Sequence record: NC_101837.1
DNA: 64,000 nucleotides
Direction: 5' to 3' (one strand)
DNA from: a phage
The notes below the pieces were generated by a model. The model was not told the DNA's origin, ran no database searches, and saw only the letters and a list, made by a program, of their open reading frames with translations. Each line of letters begins with the position of its first letter. Position 1 is the first letter of the stretch. Positions 51,719 to 60,058 of this stretch are shown here, one piece after another. The position numbers and the translations under genes were made by a program.

Positions 51719-51997
51719 ATGAGCTGCGAAAAATCTTTTTTCATCATCATTTACGGTAAGGATAACTGCCCACATTGTGTCAGAGCAAAAGAATTTGCAA
51801 TCAGCAAAGGTCTGCCTTTTGTATATAAGACACTTGGCGAGGGCTACACAAAAGAAGAGCTTATTGAGAAGTGTAGTCCAATCGTCCCCAGAACGTTGCC
51901 GCAGATCTTCTTAGAAAGCGATCTTGACAGTGTCCATATAGGCGGTGCAGACGATTTCATCTCTTTTGTTAAGAATGGTTTTGGAGAGAAAAAGTGA
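51719..51997 (+). CDS. glutaredoxin/NrdH-like redoxin
   Basis: 92 aa; CPHC active-site motif (YGKDNCPHCVRAKEF). Confidence 0.7.
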   Translation: MSCEKSFFIIIYGKDNCPHCVRAKEFAISKGLPFVYKTLGEGYTKEELIEKCSPIVPRTLPQIFLESDLDSVHIGGADDFISFVKNGFGEKK

Positions 51998-52854
51998 AAG
52001 TTGTAAAACGGGACGGTAGAGAAGAGTTTTATAACGGAATTAAGGTGATCAAGGCGGCAGAGTCCGCCTTACTTGAGTCTGGACATACTGAAGAAGAAGC
52101 TTACCGGATAGCTTGTGCAGTTAATGAAGTTGTTGCTAACAATCTACCAACCGACCAGTGCACGATCTCTGTAAAAAATATCCATATCCTTGTTGAAGAT
52201 GCTCTTATGGATATGGGTTTAAAATGTGCAGCCAGAGAATACATCCAGTATAGACAGACAAGAGATAATAACAGAGAGGCAGGTGGAAAACTGCTTGCAG
52301 ATATTAGTGGCTTCTTGGATCGAACTTGTGATGAATTTACAAAAGAAAACGCAAATAAGCCTACTAATCATGTACACACTCATCGCGACCTGCTTGCAGG
52401 CATCCTTAGCAAACACCTTGCATCAACACAGATCCTGCCAGACCGTGTTTCAGAAGAGCACAATAAAGGCTTCATCCATGTGCATGATCTTGACTACTTG
52501 ATCAGTCCGTTAACAAACTGTTGTTTGGTAAATTATCCAGATATGTTGGAAAACGGATTCAACATTGGCAACGCCCATGTCAGTAAGCCGAAGTCAATAG
52601 GGGTTGCAACAACAATCCTTAGTCAAATCTCTAGCGCGGTAGCTAGTGCTCAATATGGTGGTCAGACTATGAGCCATATTGATCATTATCTGGCACAGTA
52701 TGCTGAAGCAACCTATGAGAAGAACCTTAAATTTTGCCAGGAACATTGGTTGCCGGATGCTGAAACTGTTGCAATGCAAATGACAGATAAAGACGTGTTT
52801 GACAGCATGCAGACGTTGCTTTATCAGATCAACACACTAACCTCGGTAAACGGT
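51994..52854 (+). CDS. nrdD: anaerobic ribonucleoside-triphosphate reductase NrdD, exon 1
   Basis: GTG start; ATP-cone (VVKRDGREEF), conserved class III RNR segments; frame hits stop only because intron begins at 52855. Confidence 0.8.
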
Positions 52855-53111
52855 TAACAAACTGGCCGTTTTAAAACTCTGCTAACCTCAGTATGAGGGG
52901 TCAGCTGATCGCTGGCTAACGGGGAACGCTAAGGCGAAAGCTATGCCAATCCCGTGACTAGCTTCACAAGGAGTGAGGCGGTTGTAACGACTAACCTTTT
53001 GGTGTAGGGATTATGGAAGATTCCGAAACGCAGGGGTCTGATTAAGAATCACACGGTGTGATTTCAGGCAAGAGATAGTCTGGCCTTGTGGAAACATAAG
53101 GGTGGGGACCG
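52855..53111 (+). other. group I self-splicing intron (ORF-less) interrupting nrdD
   Basis: 5' exon ends in U (52854); intron ends in G (53111); internal guide GCCGUU (52865-52870) pairs with exon AACGGU including U.G; P7-like GACUAG/CUAGUC-type elements; NrdD sequence ...NTLTSVNG|QTPFITLS... continuous after removal. Confidence 0.75.
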
Positions 53112-54374
53112 CAAACCCCTTTTATCACATTAAGTTTAGGTTTGGACACTTCGGTCTTTGGTAGAATGATTACCAAAAATTACTTGAAAGTCCACAAAAT
53201 GGGTCTTGGTGAAGAACGTATCACACCTGTGTTCCCTAAAGTGCTGTTCTTCCTGGAAGAGGGTGTCAACATGAACCCTGGGGATCCTAACTATGATTTG
53301 AAACGATTAGCTCTGGAATGCTGTGCAGAACGTATCTATCCTGACTTCGTATCTGTACCACTAAATAGAAAAGTGACAGGCTCGACAGATGGCAAAGTAA
53401 CTAGCATGGGTTGCAGGAGTTTTCTTAGCAAATACAATGACTTGGAAACAGGCGAGGAGAAATACCTTGGCAGATTTAACTTAGGCGTTGTTAGCCTTAA
53501 CCTGCCAATGATTGCGGCAAAAGCTAAGACGGAAGGTGTTGATTTCTTTGCAGTTCTTGACGAATACTTGGATCTTGCATATGAGGCTCACCTTGTAAGG
53601 GTTAACCGTCTAAAAGGAACAAAGGCAGGGCAGAACCCCATCATGTGGTGTGAAGGCGCTCTTGCTCGCCTGGATCCTGAAGAGAGTATTGATAAACTCT
53701 TCTATGACGGGTACGCTTCCATCAGTATTGGGTATATTGGTGTGTATGAAACCTGTCAGATTTTGGGCAGAGAGGGTGACAAGGCTTTAGCTCTTGGAAT
53801 CCTTCAGCACATGAGAGATGCTTGTGAGCGATACAAGAAGGAAAGTAGACTAGCATTTAGCTTGTACGGCACTCCTTCTGAGAGTCTATGCTATAAAGCT
53901 GCAACCTGTCTGGATCGTGAATATCCGGAAGTGTTGAAGCACGAGCATGAATATCTCACCAACAGTTTCCATCAGCCAGTGTGGATAAATAGCTCTCCTT
54001 TTGATAAGTGGGAGTATGAGGAAGGTTTTGCTATGATCTCCTCTGGTGGCAACATTGGATACGTAGAGACACCTAACCTGAAAAACAACCTGGATGCTTT
54101 AGAGGCTCTTGTTGACTTCGGGTATAAACATATTATGTATTTTGGTATTAACCAACCTGTGGATAAATGTCTCAAGTGTGGTTTCTCTGGTGAGTTCAGT
54201 GCAACAGCTAAAGGGTTCTGCTGCCCTGCGTGCGGATGCCACGATGAACAATATATCTCAGTGATCCGAAGAGTGTCTGGATATCTTTCCAGTCCTAACT
54301 CCCGTCCTTACAATAAAGGTAAGCAAGCGGAAGTTATCGAGCGAGTTAAGCACTACGGAAGTTGTGGTTGCTGA
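53112..54374 (+). CDS. nrdD: anaerobic ribonucleoside-triphosphate reductase NrdD, exon 2
   Basis: Frame open from 53100; ITPVFPK...EEGVN..., C-terminal zinc-ribbon CLKCG...CPACG and glycyl-radical region. Confidence 0.8.
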   Translation, partial: QTPFITLSLGLDTSVFGRMITKNYLKVHKMGLGEERITPVFPKVLFFLEEGVNMNPGDPNYDLKRLALECCAERIYPDFVSVPLNRKVTGSTDGKVTSMGCRSFLSKYNDLETGEEKYLGRFNLGVVSLNLPMIAAKAKTEGVDFFAVLDEYLDLAYEAHLVRVNRLKGTKAGQNPIMWCEGALARLDPEESIDKLFYDGYASISIGYIGVYETCQILGREGDKALALGILQHMRDACERYKKESRLAFSLYGTPSESLCYKAATCLDREYPEVLKHEHEYLTNSFHQPVWINSSPFDKWEYEEGFAMISSGGNIGYVETPNLKNNLDALEALVDFGYKHIMYFGINQPVDKCLKCGFSGEFSATAKGFCCPACGCHDEQYISVIRRVSGYLSSPNSRPYNKGKQAEVIERVKHYGSCGC

Positions 54375-56602: not shown

Positions 56603-57391
56603 ATGGGTCGAGCTAAAGAAACAAAACGCATGCGTGATGAAGCTAGAGAGGCTCGCAAATCTGATCGCCTGCGTAAGGCTGCTGAGAAATTTGCTGACGA
56701 AAGAGAGCACACCGCTCCAGCTCTCCGACCAATGAATAAGAAGCAGCAAAAGTATCTTGATTATCTAGGGTCACGTAAGATTATTATTGTAAACGGCGTG
56801 TTTGGATCCGGTAAGACATTTATGGCATCTGCATATGCAGGTGATCTTCTGCGTAAGAACGAGATTGATAAGATCATTGTTGCACGTCCTTACGTCCAGA
56901 CAGGAAAGACTTCAGGATTTAAACCCGGAAATGCAATGCAGAAACTGTGGCCCTATCTTCGAAGCATGATGGACACGATTTGTCGTCGTGTTGGCAAAGG
57001 TGCTTTTGCCGCAATGCTGGGAGACGGTCAGAACAGTCGTATCGAGATTTGTGAAGTTGAAAGCATTCGTGGTCGTAGTTTCGATGAGCGATGCTTTGTC
57101 CTGATTGACGAGGCACAGCAAACTAACCCTGAAGAAATGTTGTCAATTATCACAAGGATCTCTGATCAAGCCACCCTTGTAATTATGGGTGATAATAGCC
57201 AACGTGACATCCCTGGTAAATCTGGCCTTGCATGGGTGACGGATTTCTTTACTCGTCATCCAGATCCTGAGGTTGGAATGATCAGCTTTGATAGTCCAGA
57301 CGATGTCGTTCGTTCCGGGTTGGGTCGTCAAATCGCACTCAATCTTATTGAGGATCGTGCAAATCATATTTGGACCCCTGTTTCCGAGTAA
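56603..57391 (+). CDS. phoH: PhoH-like ATPase
   Basis: Walker A GVFGSGKTF, Walker B-like VLIDEAQ, PhoH-family length (262 aa). Confidence 0.75.
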   Translation: MGRAKETKRMRDEAREARKSDRLRKAAEKFADEREHTAPALRPMNKKQQKYLDYLGSRKIIIVNGVFGSGKTFMASAYAGDLLRKNEIDKIIVARPYVQTGKTSGFKPGNAMQKLWPYLRSMMDTICRRVGKGAFAAMLGDGQNSRIEICEVESIRGRSFDERCFVLIDEAQQTNPEEMLSIITRISDQATLVIMGDNSQRDIPGKSGLAWVTDFFTRHPDPEVGMISFDSPDDVVRSGLGRQIALNLIEDRANHIWTPVSE

Positions 57392-57435
57392 TACAGAAGG
57401 GTGGTTATTCCACCCTTAAATATCTAAAACAGTTG

Positions 57436-57464
57436 TTGACAAACAGGTAAGCTTTAGATATTAT
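57436..57464 (+). promoter_or_regulatory. sigma70-type promoter (AGTTGTTGACA family)
   Basis: TTGACA (57436-57441), 17-bp spacer, TATTAT (57459-57464), then TATCGG; preceded by hairpin AAGGGUGG/CCACCCUU after phoH. Confidence 0.5.
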
Positions 57465-57494
57465 TATCGGACAAGACAAGGAGAAGGAGATAGT

Positions 57495-57806
57495 ATGGCT
57501 ACAATACAAGAGAGACTGAATAAAATATACTGCCTGTTTGTCTATAACGGCGAGACAATTTTGGCAAATAAAGGATCCAAGAATGTGTGGATCAAGGACA
57601 GCGGTGGTAATATAATCAACTTAGCGTTGCTACGTGAGCGCCGACACAGATTCTTTATCGAGTCTCGAATTATTGAAAGCAGCACTTGCTACAGAACAGG
57701 CGATAAAGTAATTGTTGACAATGATACGTGGTATGTGGTAGATTGGCAATCATTGAGTTGTGATGCTTCTGACAATCGTAAGTACTCCATAGTGATTGCT
57801 AAATAA
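57495..57806 (+). CDS. hypothetical protein
   Basis: 103-aa ORF with GGAGAAGGAG RBS. Confidence 0.4.
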   Translation: MATIQERLNKIYCLFVYNGETILANKGSKNVWIKDSGGNIINLALLRERRHRFFIESRIIESSTCYRTGDKVIVDNDTWYVVDWQSLSCDASDNRKYSIVIAK

Positions 57807-57866
57807 AGGTAAATGTGAATCAGGTTTAAATAAATAGCTTTCAACTTCCAATATTAAGGATTTCTC

Positions 57867-58916
57867 ATGAATTTAACACCTCGCAGCACCATGGTACACG
57901 GCATGAAAGAAAAACAGAACGGTTTCGAACCTATGAGTAATAAAATGTTTGGTATGCCGGGCGGTATCATGGAAACATACAGCTACCCAACACCTGTTGT
58001 TGACCACGTTCTTTATATCGACGATTTGGAGGACCTGCAGGATCATATGTCTCGTCTGCAGACGATCCGTATGGCTCAGCCGGAAGAAAGCATTCGTGTG
58101 ATCATCAATAGCCCTGGTGGTTGCGTGCACATTGCAATGGCCTATCTGCAGGCATTCCGCGAGTCTCAGGCAAGCGTTGTTGCACATGCTGAAGGGATGT
58201 GCTGCTCTGCTGGAACAATCTTATGGCTTGGTTGCAAAGAACGTACTGTGGCTCCGGACACAGAATTTATGTTCCACTACTATCAAGGTGGCACTTATGG
58301 TAACGGTGTTAACATGAATACTCAGGTCAGCTACTGGAAAAAACGTTTTGAACACCTGATCGAAAAATACTACGGTGGGGTGCTGACAGAAGATGAGATC
58401 GCATCCATCACAGCTGGTGGCGAAGTGTGGTTGGACGGAGAAGAGTTGGCAGCACGCACTGGAGCTATTATTCTGGATGAAGGCAACATACAACGCATCC
58501 AGAACGGACAAAAACCGAAAAAGCTTCTGGCAAAAGGTGATGAAGAAGGCGTGTTAGGTGAAGCAGGTCTTCCGGAGATTCATCAGTGCACATCTTTAGA
58601 TGAGTTAGTTCATGCTGTTGAATCTGCAAAAGCGGGTGGTTCGAAAGGTGATGTTCACACTGTGTTCCTGAATCTGCAGATGGAAAGTGGCGAGACCGTC
58701 CGAATTGCCCTGGGTGAGATTACTTCAGAAGATCTGCAGAGATTCTCTGTCGTTGAACTTCAGGATATTCTGTCTCAATTGAAGACTACTCTGAACGGCG
58801 GTGAAGAGGTTAAGGTGAAAGATAAGACTCGCAAGCGTCTTGTGGACAATATTATTAAAACAGCAAAAGAGCTCAATGAAAAAATCCTTGGTGCAGGAAT
58901 TGTCGAAGAAGCTTAA
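57867..58916 (+). CDS. ClpP/S14-family serine peptidase (possible prohead protease) with C-terminal extension
   Basis: ClpP-like motifs INSPGG, GMCCSAG (Ser), MFHYYQGG (His); AAGGA RBS; followed by strong terminator. Confidence 0.6.
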   Translation: MNLTPRSTMVHGMKEKQNGFEPMSNKMFGMPGGIMETYSYPTPVVDHVLYIDDLEDLQDHMSRLQTIRMAQPEESIRVIINSPGGCVHIAMAYLQAFRESQASVVAHAEGMCCSAGTILWLGCKERTVAPDTEFMFHYYQGGTYGNGVNMNTQVSYWKKRFEHLIEKYYGGVLTEDEIASITAGGEVWLDGEELAARTGAIILDEGNIQRIQNGQKPKKLLAKGDEEGVLGEAGLPEIHQCTSLDELVHAVESAKAGGSKGDVHTVFLNLQMESGETVRIALGEITSEDLQRFSVVELQDILSQLKTTLNGGEEVKVKDKTRKRLVDNIIKTAKELNEKILGAGIVEEA

Positions 58917-58929
58917 ACATTAATTCTAA

Positions 58930-58950
58930 AGCCCTCTTCGGAGGGCTTTT
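58930..58950 (+). terminator. rho-independent terminator
   Basis: AGCCCUC-UUCG-GAGGGCU hairpin followed by UUUUAU. Confidence 0.6.
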
Positions 58951-58967
58951 ATGATCTGGAGATTTGC

Positions 58968-59501
58968 ATGACTTGTGCTAGAAAACCTGATGAACAACGT
59001 AACGCCTACGATGAGTATGTGACACCGGAATGGTGTGCAGAAGGGCTGTATGACCTTATTCCGTTCCCAGAAGACTGGACCTACTTAGAGCCTTGCAGGA
59101 ATAGTGCCTCAGGTGTGTTCTACTCCCGTATGCCGTTAGGATCTGCATGGGGAGAAATCCAAGAAGGTGTTGACTATCTGAATACAGAATACAACCATGT
59201 TGACTGTATTATCACCAACCCGCCGTACAGCCTGGCTCGTGAGTTTGTGAACAAGGCGTTGAAAGATGCCGACGTAGTTATTATGCTTTTGCGTCTTAAT
59301 TTTCTGGAAAGCAAAGCCAGATTTGAATGGTGGCTTGATAATGCACCTACTACTGTGATCACAATATCTAAGCGTCCATCATTTCAATCAAACGGCAGAA
59401 CTGACGGGCAAGCATATGCATATTTTGTGTGGGATAAGAAAAACCGTTTAGACTTGCCGCCGTTTATGTGGTTGGCACCCCCAGAGGTAGACCTGAAATG
59501 A
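58968..59501 (+). CDS. DNA N6-adenine methyltransferase (small)
   Basis: Motif IV ITNPPYS; N-terminal YVTPEW; 177 aa. Confidence 0.6.
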   Translation: MTCARKPDEQRNAYDEYVTPEWCAEGLYDLIPFPEDWTYLEPCRNSASGVFYSRMPLGSAWGEIQEGVDYLNTEYNHVDCIITNPPYSLAREFVNKALKDADVVIMLLRLNFLESKARFEWWLDNAPTTVITISKRPSFQSNGRTDGQAYAYFVWDKKNRLDLPPFMWLAPPEVDLK

Positions 59502-59782
59502 AAATGAGTGCTAAGGACAAATTACACCAGCTAGCGCTAAAACGCCCTGTAACGCTCCCTGACGAGCTTAACTCCATTTATGATGCGATTGTAGGGGAGA
59601 TACAAAATAAAGCGTTAGCAGGCTTTCTGGGGTGCGGATTTTCGATAAATCTACCCTCGCATCTCTCAGATTACTTCCCGCACATTGTTGGAGATTTAAG
59701 GGCAGGAGGTCTGCAGGTAGATGTTGTTGGCATCTCCCCAGAGAAAAATAATACGGTTGCCTACTTGACAGTAACCTGGTAG
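59498..59782 (+). CDS. hypothetical protein
   Basis: ATG 59498 overlaps MTase stop (ATGA); track frame 59468..59782. Confidence 0.35.
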   Translation: MKMSAKDKLHQLALKRPVTLPDELNSIYDAIVGEIQNKALAGFLGCGFSINLPSHLSDYFPHIVGDLRAGGLQVDVVGISPEKNNTVAYLTVTW

Positions 59783-59818
59783 TTGTGTATTGTTGTTTTC
59801 AACAAGAGGGGGTCATTT

Positions 59819-60058
59819 ATGTACAAGTCATTTTCAATCTACTCAAGACAGGCGAAACACTACACAGAGATCCTGATCACTCAGAAAAAATCTGTGGAAG
59901 GTGAGTGGGAATATCACCATAAAATGTTGCGTCCAGACTGGGTTTTTGATAGACTTATTGCTATGATCCCTCTCGGAGAAGTATACCCTCTGACAGCCCA
60001 TCGCGATGCTTGGGATTTAATTGATTACATAGATTCATTTAAGGAGCCTAGATTATGA
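59819..60058 (+). CDS. hypothetical protein
   Basis: ATG 59819 with AGAGGGGG RBS; track frame 59783..60058. Confidence 0.35.
   Translation: MYKSFSIYSRQAKHYTEILITQKKSVEGEWEYHHKMLRPDWVFDRLIAMIPLGEVYPLTAHRDAWDLIDYIDSFKEPRL

Follow-up and report, generated by a model that had tools for sequence, protein, structure and literature searches.

The genome paper of phage rV5 (2013) lists gp122, a protein of 349 amino acids, as "ClpP (ATP-dependent) protease subunit", and the best match of gp122 outside its own group is in Vibrio phage ICP1 (PMC3606486, Table S3). A ClpP annotation is already attached to gp122 and to its counterparts in more than 100 related genomes. According to a proposal of Iyer et al. 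(2021), jumbo phages deploy their ClpP genes against the host, and another paper describes XkdF, ClpP and PhoH together in one freshwater phage. Here we analyze the gp122 homolog in a stretch of phage DNA of 64,000 nucleotides (NC_101837.1; the whole stretch is called the window), in which it is encoded by the following open reading frame (ORF).

57867..58916, plus strand: ClpP-like serine peptidase ORF, 349 amino acids; homolog of rV5 gp122 and full-length member of PHROG 5410

The ORF starts with ATG and ends with the stop codon at 58914-58916. Positions 57000-60000 of the window are 98-99% identical to more than 100 Vequintavirus genomes in a phage collection (isim, slur16, AlexBoehm and rV5 variants among them). 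The source phage is a Vequintavirus, that is, an rV5-like myovirus of Escherichia coli. The existence of the gene and its similarity to ClpP are on record and are not new. In our reading, the protein represents Vequintavirus (as the rV5 gp122 type) within a family of phage Ser-His peptidases with the ClpP fold. It would be a non-structural, cytoplasmic chambered peptidase, encoded in the block of replication and nucleotide-metabolism genes. We put the probability of this reading at about 70%.

Fold, active site and docking surface

The protein passes the Pfam model CLP_protease (E 3.5e-12, 47 bits against a cutoff of 20.2), and a sequence search of the Protein Data Bank (PDB) matches solved ClpP chains at E values of about 1e-7. 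A profile of 24 family sequences was aligned by hhalign to E. coli ClpP with a probability of 99.3%. The AlphaFold2 monomer model, built on the same 24-sequence alignment, has pLDDT values above 90 over residues 45-220. When this model was searched against the PDB with Foldseek, the top 50 matches were all ClpP, with E values down to 5e-11 and a TM score of about 0.7 on the target. The first-pass annotation had called the ORF a ClpP-like serine peptidase from the motifs INSPGG, GMCCSAG and MFHYYQGG, and this assignment is borne out. The three motifs are located at residues 80-85 (the oxyanion-hole motif), 110-116 and 135-142, and match the Ser and His site regions of ClpP. Ser114 aligns with Ser97 of ClpP, His137 with His122, and Gly85 with the oxyanion-hole Gly; all three are invariant in 16 of 16 aligned sequences. 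Ser114 and His137, together with G84 and G85, are also the same in rV5 and the other Vequintavirinae-type homologs, in ICP1 and PaP1, and in E. coli ClpP, at overall identities of 25-26%. Judged from the alignments and the predicted model, this is an intact ClpP-type Ser-His active site in a ClpP fold. The parts of the protein are as follows.

57867..57998, plus strand: N-terminal extension, residues 1-44; predicted to be disordered, with conserved G29, Y40, P41 and D46
57999..58526, plus strand: predicted ClpP-fold catalytic core, residues 45-220 (AlphaFold2, Foldseek and alignment)
58206-58208, plus strand: codon of Ser114, placed by alignment to ClpP
58275-58277, plus strand: codon of His137, placed by alignment to ClpP
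58584..58895, plus strand: family-restricted C-terminal domain, residues 240-343 (about 110 amino acids); a helix, a beta-hairpin and three further helices in the AlphaFold2 model

The C-terminal extension of roughly 130 amino acids that had been noted at first is real. It consists of a linker (residues 221-239), disordered in the model, and the folded domain of residues 240-343. We found no fold match for this domain outside its own family. A search against 1.84 billion representative proteins gave six matches and no convincing relative beyond the family: three full-length members, one truncated member, one fragment of 53 amino acids, and one spurious leucine-rich-repeat protein. The domain is part of the family as defined in PHROG 5410. 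The match to this profile (E 2.2e-154) pairs residues 24-345 with profile positions 4-322/323 and includes the C-terminal domain, which on its own matches at E 1.3e-35. PHROG 1827 is a clear relative of the ORF (E 3e-40).

The N-terminal 44 residues stand where ClpP has its axial loops and helix A, and a counterpart of the gate is not recognizable in them. Residues 33-44 are placed by hhalign opposite the helix-A region. This segment is proline-rich and is modeled as disordered; it could fold only in the oligomer. In one database record (PQ510733.1, Escherichia phage A6-1) the ClpP-like gene is annotated as two coding sequences (CDSs). The split is either a frameshift, which would be a natural pseudogene and relevant to dispensability, or a sequencing error.

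A ClpP fold with the catalytic Ser and His in place would also be expected of a conventional ClpP subunit, one that docks on host ClpX or ClpA, or mixes into host ClpP rings, and boosts or redirects degradation by ClpXP or ClpAP. No gene like ClpX or ClpA is annotated in the genome of AlexBoehm, which is 98% identical, so the AAA+ partner would have to be the host's. HslV, the alternative occupant of this locus in related phages (see below), depends in bacteria on the separate AAA+ protein HslU, which fits a model of phage peptidase and host unfoldase. We nevertheless consider a conventional subunit unlikely. In E. coli ClpP, the pocket for the IGF/LGF loops of ClpX and ClpA (and for ADEP) is lined by Y60, Y62, F82, I90, M92, F112, and L114. 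The equivalents here are, in order, R77, I79, E99, H107, E109, T127, and A129. Five of the seven mapped hydrophobic positions are thus polar or charged (Y60 to R77, F82 to E99, I90 to H107, M92 to E109, and F112 to T127). These replacements are conserved in 13 Vequintavirinae-type sequences, and E109 is found in 15 of 15.

The curated tests for cellular ClpP point in the same direction. The protein failed the NCBIfam equivalog TIGR00493 (33.2 bits against a cutoff of 308.6) and all PRK ClpP models; PRK12553, the best cellular model, scored 38.8 bits. The identity to E. coli ClpP is only about 25%, which makes mixed rings unlikely. A Keio-collection screen looked for host genes that the rV5-like phage LL12 requires; no word starting with 'clp', 'protease' or 'lon' occurs in the paper on it, which is weak evidence against a need for host Clp proteins. 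Because five of the seven pocket residues are replaced and the N-terminal gate region differs, canonical docking onto host ClpX or ClpA probably does not occur. The altered pocket, the lack of a gate counterpart, the TIGR00493 score and the absence of an annotated ClpX or ClpA gene together make a standard ClpXP or ClpAP core unlikely.

The only AAA+ gene annotated in AlexBoehm encodes a MoxR-type ATPase and lies about 50 kb away. Outside the stretch that corresponds to the window, that genome also encodes a 'putative metallopeptidase' of 486 amino acids adjoining an 'anti-sigma factor' (with the MoxR-type ATPase, MZ501048 51016-53488 and 56124-57308). Counting the metallopeptidase, this one lytic phage has three peptidase-type genes.

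Gene context and the head protease

In each of the eight lineages examined, the ClpP-like gene is found among genes of replication or nucleotide metabolism. Its neighbors are NrdAB, NrdDG and PhoH in rV5; NrdG, endolysin, PhoH and DprA in PVP-SE1; ribonucleotide reductase (RNR) beta, PhoH and DNA ligase in ICP1; dCMP deaminase and ligase in PaP1; DNA polymerase and RNR in Alteromonas phage AD45-P2; and ligase and primase in XacN1. The PhoH gene of Otagovirus REC overlaps the 5' end of the ClpP-like gene. In Spivey the neighbor is annotated 'putative deoxynucleotide monophosphate', which we read as a deoxynucleotide monophosphate kinase. The immediate surroundings of the gene in the window are the following.

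56603..57391, plus strand: PhoH-like ATPase, 476 bp upstream of the ClpP-like gene
57397..57417, plus strand: GC-rich hairpin (GGGTGG, TTATT, CCACCC), directly after the PhoH stop and before the promoter-like site
57436..57464, plus strand: sigma-70-type promoter-like site (TTGACA, 17-nt spacer, TATTAT; 11/12 matches), corresponding to predicted rV5 P121
57495..57806, plus strand: small upstream ORF, 103 amino acids; homolog of rV5 gp121, PHROG 5456; in the same predicted transcription unit as the ClpP-like gene
58931..58952, plus strand: predicted intrinsic terminator, hairpin GCCCTCTTCGGAGGGC followed by TTTTAT, corresponding to rV5 t122; ends the two-gene unit
58968..59501, plus strand: small DNA methyltransferase-like gene, the downstream synteny anchor; 60% identical to PVP-SE1 gp152 and 47% to phi92 gp056

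The two-gene unit agrees with the rV5 paper, which predicts a sigma-70 promoter, P121, before gp121 and a terminator, t122, after gp122 (PMC3606486). A gp121-type ORF is kept upstream of the ClpP-like gene in PVP-SE1, at 31% identity. The hairpin at 57397..57417 is absent from the list in the rV5 paper; it may be a weak terminator that parts PhoH from the gp121-gp122 unit. All exact copies of the core of the rV5 late promoter, TGGTAAAATA, lie in the structural block and on the minus strand. Further upstream, the anaerobic ribonucleotide reductase is present as two plus-strand ORFs (51994-52857 and 53142-54374), about 285 bp apart. In AlexBoehm the corresponding CDS is joined from two pieces, as is that of the DNA polymerase, in which a homing endonuclease is found. 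The anaerobic ribonucleotide reductase gene is likely to contain an intron or another intervening element.

The head block (20342..26476, minus strand) is about 31 kb from the ClpP-like gene and on the opposite strand; the first-pass annotation had remarked on this separation. It contains the following genes.

24929-26476, minus strand: terminase large subunit
23272-24828, minus strand: portal
22785..23216, minus strand: XkdF-type (Peptidase_S78_2) protease by Pfam, the probable prohead protease, in the slot between portal and scaffold
21808..22785, minus strand: head scaffold protein, 325 amino acids; 28% identical to ICP1 scaffold gp124 (E 1e-11)
21398-21787, minus strand: head decoration protein
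20342-21349, minus strand: major capsid protein, Phage_cap_E type; 34% identical to the ICP1 coat protein (E 3e-62)

The portal-to-scaffold slot had initially been described as holding only a small unknown ORF. This was wrong. The product of ORF 22785..23216 scores 64.6 bits (cutoff 24, E 1e-17) on the Pfam model Peptidase_S78_2, which bears the description 'putative phage serine protease XkdF'. Its start codon is uncertain and could be ATG 23216, ATG 23204 (as annotated in AlexBoehm) or GTG 23360. His25, His56 and Ser114 of this protease are invariant in the window, ICP1, PaP1, and a Lactococcus phage (26-40% identical). A PDB sequence search with this ORF gave no match. The carefully annotated BASEL phage AlexBoehm (98% identity) has these genes under the names prohead protease, head scaffold, head decoration and major capsid protein. 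The order terminase large subunit, portal, protease, scaffold, decoration protein, major capsid protein is common to the window, ICP1 and PaP1. The 'capsid protease' of ICP1, gp125, is 40% identical to the XkdF-type protease of the window. Publications on ICP1 treat gp125 as its predicted maturation protease and report a demonstrated scaffolding activity of the ICP1 scaffold (PMC7567579, PMC10002752). A homolog was detected by mass spectrometry in virions of the Pectobacterium phage CB7 (Certrevirus) and is listed as "prohead core protein protease" (PMC7344957). We conclude from these comparisons that ORF 22785..23216 probably encodes the prohead protease.

A peptide detected in rV5 virions, KDEFGIVDLGATLDLVPR, begins with residue 5 of the major capsid protein. 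The N-terminus of the capsid protein is therefore retained, as in lambda gpE, and the head protease probably acts on the scaffold or on further internal proteins. Public records widely mis-annotate the XkdF-type gene as 'DNA methyltransferase' (for example in HMD-6, V18, muut, alia, phi92 gene 121 and PaP1 gp048), and PHROG 1530 bears the same description.

The first-pass annotation had left two roles open for the ClpP-like protein: a prohead protease encoded far from the head genes, or a non-structural protein. In the first case it would be the prohead-maturation protease, or a second one, and its C-terminal domain would target it to the procapsid as the tails of known prohead proteases do. 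The profile searches lend this some weight. Besides its own family, the best named families are head-maturation types (PHROG 1684, 94, 2976, and 133, and NCBIfam NF045542, Clp_rel_HeadMat, at 60.6 bits). Moreover, the C-terminal extension has no assigned function, and the XkdF-type family is only 'putative' in Pfam; we found no direct biochemistry on it for this phage group. Yet the Clp_rel_HeadMat score is about half of the curated cutoff of 120 and the model is not passed. The canonical slot is filled by the XkdF-type protease, with its conserved His and Ser residues and its homolog in CB7 virions; a second protease of this kind was the observation that the first-pass annotation itself had named as speaking against a remote one, and at the level of sequence it is there. 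The ClpP-like gene belongs to a sigma-70-type promoter unit inside the replication block. Its ICP1 homolog, gp211, is classed as 'Middle-late' together with PhoH (gp208), outside the late class to which the ICP1 capsid genes gp122-126 belong. Mass spectrometry identified 19 proteins in rV5 virions, and gp122 was not one of them. Finally, phi92-like phages have the same type of head module, with a protease 41.5% identical to that of the window, and no ClpP-like gene; an HslV-like gene is found in its place. This argument and that from the occupied slot are indirect. We know of no prohead protease of the HslV type. A remote prohead protease is thus quite improbable, while gene context, the predicted type of promoter, mass spectrometry of virions and comparative genomics all favor the non-structural alternative.

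A peptidase of the S49/SppA/lambda gpC type was also considered and rejected. There is no Pfam Peptidase_S49 match at E <=1, and His137 is conserved at the position of the ClpP general base.

A 2026 preprint describes a CBASS CD-NTase that is activated by phage protease cleavage and restricts the Vequintavirinae Bas48-59; the loop requirements for these phages differ from those for T4 gp21, and the protease responsible is not named (PMC12991175). The XkdF-type and the ClpP-like enzymes are both candidates for the protease sensed in Vequintavirinae.

The peptidase slot beside PhoH

PhoH adjoins the peptidase slot in 7 of the 11 phage lineages examined. In phi92, a member of the Stephanstirmvirinae, the syntenic stretch runs PhoH (gp060), gp059, gp058, gp057, methyltransferase (gp056). 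Here, gp058 is a homolog of HslV. It matches HslV chains of the PDB down to E 2e-7 and is above the sequence threshold of Pfam Proteasome; the Thr nucleophile is retained in its N-terminus, MTTIIATR. Five diverse ClpP queries detected no ClpP-like sequence in the complete genome of the phi92-like phage muut (best E 0.2), and no HslV-like sequence was found in the complete AlexBoehm genome or in the window. The muut genome has an HslV-like peptidase in the same order of genes (PhoH, ORF, peptidase, ORF, methyltransferase), as well as the head protease with 41.5% identity to that of the window. PhoH is also followed by an HslV-like gene in Vibrio phage 1.187.O (one ORF between) and in Aeromonas phage 4L372XY (five ORFs between). 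The latter carries two adjacent HslV-family genes. On the evidence of these sequences, the exchange of ClpP-like for HslV-like peptidases at one locus is a non-orthologous replacement between unrelated self-compartmentalizing proteases. In the literature searched we found no description of this interchange or of its linkage to PhoH.

The phage HslV-like peptidases have 217-275 amino acids, against about 175 in bacterial HslV, and their extensions are unrelated to that of the ClpP-like protein. Comparison of the C-terminal domain with the C-terminal parts of ICP1 ClpP and the HslV-like proteins gave at most 3.5 bits (hmmsearch), and phi92 gp057 showed no similarity to it; these were rejected as counterparts. 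The small upstream ORFs (rV5 gp121-type, PVP-SE1 gp150 and phi92 gp059) were considered as a conserved partner. Homology among them is unsupported, with a profile-profile probability of 0.65%. In pairwise BLAST they share a motif of 15 residues, approximately (D/N)(K/Q)(I/V)(I/L)VD-x-(E/D)T-xxx-(I/V)D(W/Y), with single-comparison E values of 4e-5 to 0.03.

PhoH itself occurs in two subtypes, about 27% identical to each other. The rV5-type PhoH is found with a ClpP-like peptidase in the window, PVP-SE1 and REC, and with an HslV-like peptidase in Aeromonas phage 4L372XY. The phi92-type PhoH is found with an HslV-like peptidase in phi92 and Vibrio phage 1.187.O, and with a ClpP-like peptidase in ICP1. 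All four combinations of PhoH subtype and peptidase type therefore exist, a pattern that rests on seven lineages, and the linkage has thus outlasted replacement of either partner.

In the non-structural reading that we prefer, the ClpP-like gene would be co-transcribed with the small upstream ORF from the predicted host-type promoter. The protein would assemble into a ClpP-like ring or barrel, which would degrade cytoplasmic proteins of the infected cell in the early-to-middle phase. Its targets could be host proteins or spent phage proteins. It would fill a chambered-peptidase slot just downstream of the PhoH-like ATPase, a slot taken by an HslV-like enzyme in related phages. Gating, the choice of substrates or the binding of a partner would most likely fall to the N-terminal segment and the C-terminal domain.

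It is tempting to go one step further and to regard PhoH and the downstream chambered peptidase, ClpP-like or HslV-like, as one functional module, either a physically coupled ATP-dependent protease or two members of a shared host-takeover pathway. In the coupled version PhoH, alone or with the small intervening ORF, would replace ClpX or HslU. We offer this tentatively and regard it as doubtful on balance. If true, it would explain the lost ClpX/ClpA pocket, the use of either peptidase in one slot and the survival of the linkage when a partner is replaced. It would also give phage PhoH, a common marker gene in viromes, a biochemical role that can be tested. PhoH has long been a puzzle in phages, and the slot is repeatedly tied to it; a prior description of the pairing was not found in the literature searched.

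The ClpP/HslV interchange speaks for a requirement, in these lytic phages, for their own cytoplasmic degradation chamber. The family does not pass the curated models of cellular ClpP or of ClpP-type head proteases, has an altered pocket and carries an orphan C-terminal domain; the label 'ATP-dependent Clp protease subunit' is therefore probably misleading, and this in hundreds of phage genomes.

Several observations weigh against a non-structural, active peptidase. By profile score the protein is nearer to phage head-maturation proteases (Clp_rel_HeadMat, 60.6 bits) than to cellular ClpP (38.8 and 33.2 bits), and it matches PHROG 1684, a ClpP-related head-maturation type, at E 8e-22. We mention as a speculation in this regard that the gene may derive from a head protease of the ClpP type whose capsid role was lost. 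P121 and t122 are predictions of the rV5 paper, and some late transcription of the gene may come from a copy of the late-promoter core inside the upstream ORF (57605-57614; one mismatch, within chance expectation). Since prohead proteases often leave the capsid, the failure to detect gp122 in mature virions carries little weight. The linkage to PhoH holds in only 4 of the 8 ClpP-like lineages sampled, a small and phylogenetically non-independent set; no PhoH gene was found within the flanks examined in PaP1, Spivey, AD45-P2 and XacN1. The third residue of the triad (Asp171 in ClpP) would fall, by our own reading of the secondary-structure register, on Gly185 or Glu186; the columns that MAFFT gives for residues 170, 171 and 189 cannot be relied on, and the hhalign alignment ends at residue 164. 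Across the family, position 186 is E, Q, D or E, with Gln in most Seunavirus-type homologs. Lastly, the literature searched yielded no experimental study of any family member and no relevant experimental work on phage ClpP or HslV. A catalytically dead ClpP fold, serving as scaffold, decoy or inhibitor of host Clp proteases, would suit the unconserved third triad residue and the altered docking surface but is very improbable, as the invariance of Ser114, His137, G84 and G85 at such low overall identity would be unexpected for a pseudo-enzyme.

Among the database records consulted, 19 entries of the MG0656xx series are named 'Campylobacter phage', with C. jejuni as host, and share about 98.7% identity with the E. 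coli Vequintavirus studied here over positions 57000-60000 of the window; other MG0656xx records match phi92-type phages. The series looks like mislabeled or contaminant assemblies.

Comparison with known systems

The closest described proteins are the phage 'ATP-dependent protease' families PHROG 5410 and 1827 (rV5 gp122, PVP-SE1 gp151, ICP1 gp211 and PaP1 gp041). This is the protein's own family, and there is no substantive difference. Location in the replication module is shared, as is a PhoH neighbor in several lineages. The label 'ATP-dependent' was inherited from cellular ClpP and not from experiment.

Bacterial ClpP (MEROPS S14; PF00574; 1TYF) has the same alpha/beta fold, the same Ser and His sites, INSPGG, and the long 'handle' helix (here residues 147-169). 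The phage protein differs from it in the polar or charged docking pocket, the disordered N-terminus of 44 residues, and the extra C-terminal domain of about 110 amino acids. Its gene is that of a lytic phage without an annotated cognate AAA+ gene.

The head-maturation proteases (Clp_rel_HeadMat, PHROG 1684, 94 and 133, and fusions of ClpP to the major capsid protein) are likewise phage ClpP-fold Ser-His peptidases, often extended at the C-terminus, and give the best profile scores among the named families besides the protein's own. Unlike theirs, the gene here lies outside the head module and is not in a late-type unit. The head protease that is present has a different fold, and a sister lineage has the same head module without the ClpP-like gene.

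The phage HslV-like peptidases (phi92 gp058; Stephanstirmvirinae and some Aeromonas and Vibrio phages) are Ntn hydrolases with an N-terminal Thr nucleophile, in contrast to the Ser-His ClpP fold, and have no sequence similarity to the ClpP-like protein, extensions included. Both are nevertheless subunits of self-compartmentalizing proteases with C-terminal extensions relative to their cellular counterparts. Both occupy the slot downstream of PhoH, in phi92 as here with one small ORF after PhoH and the same methyltransferase downstream.

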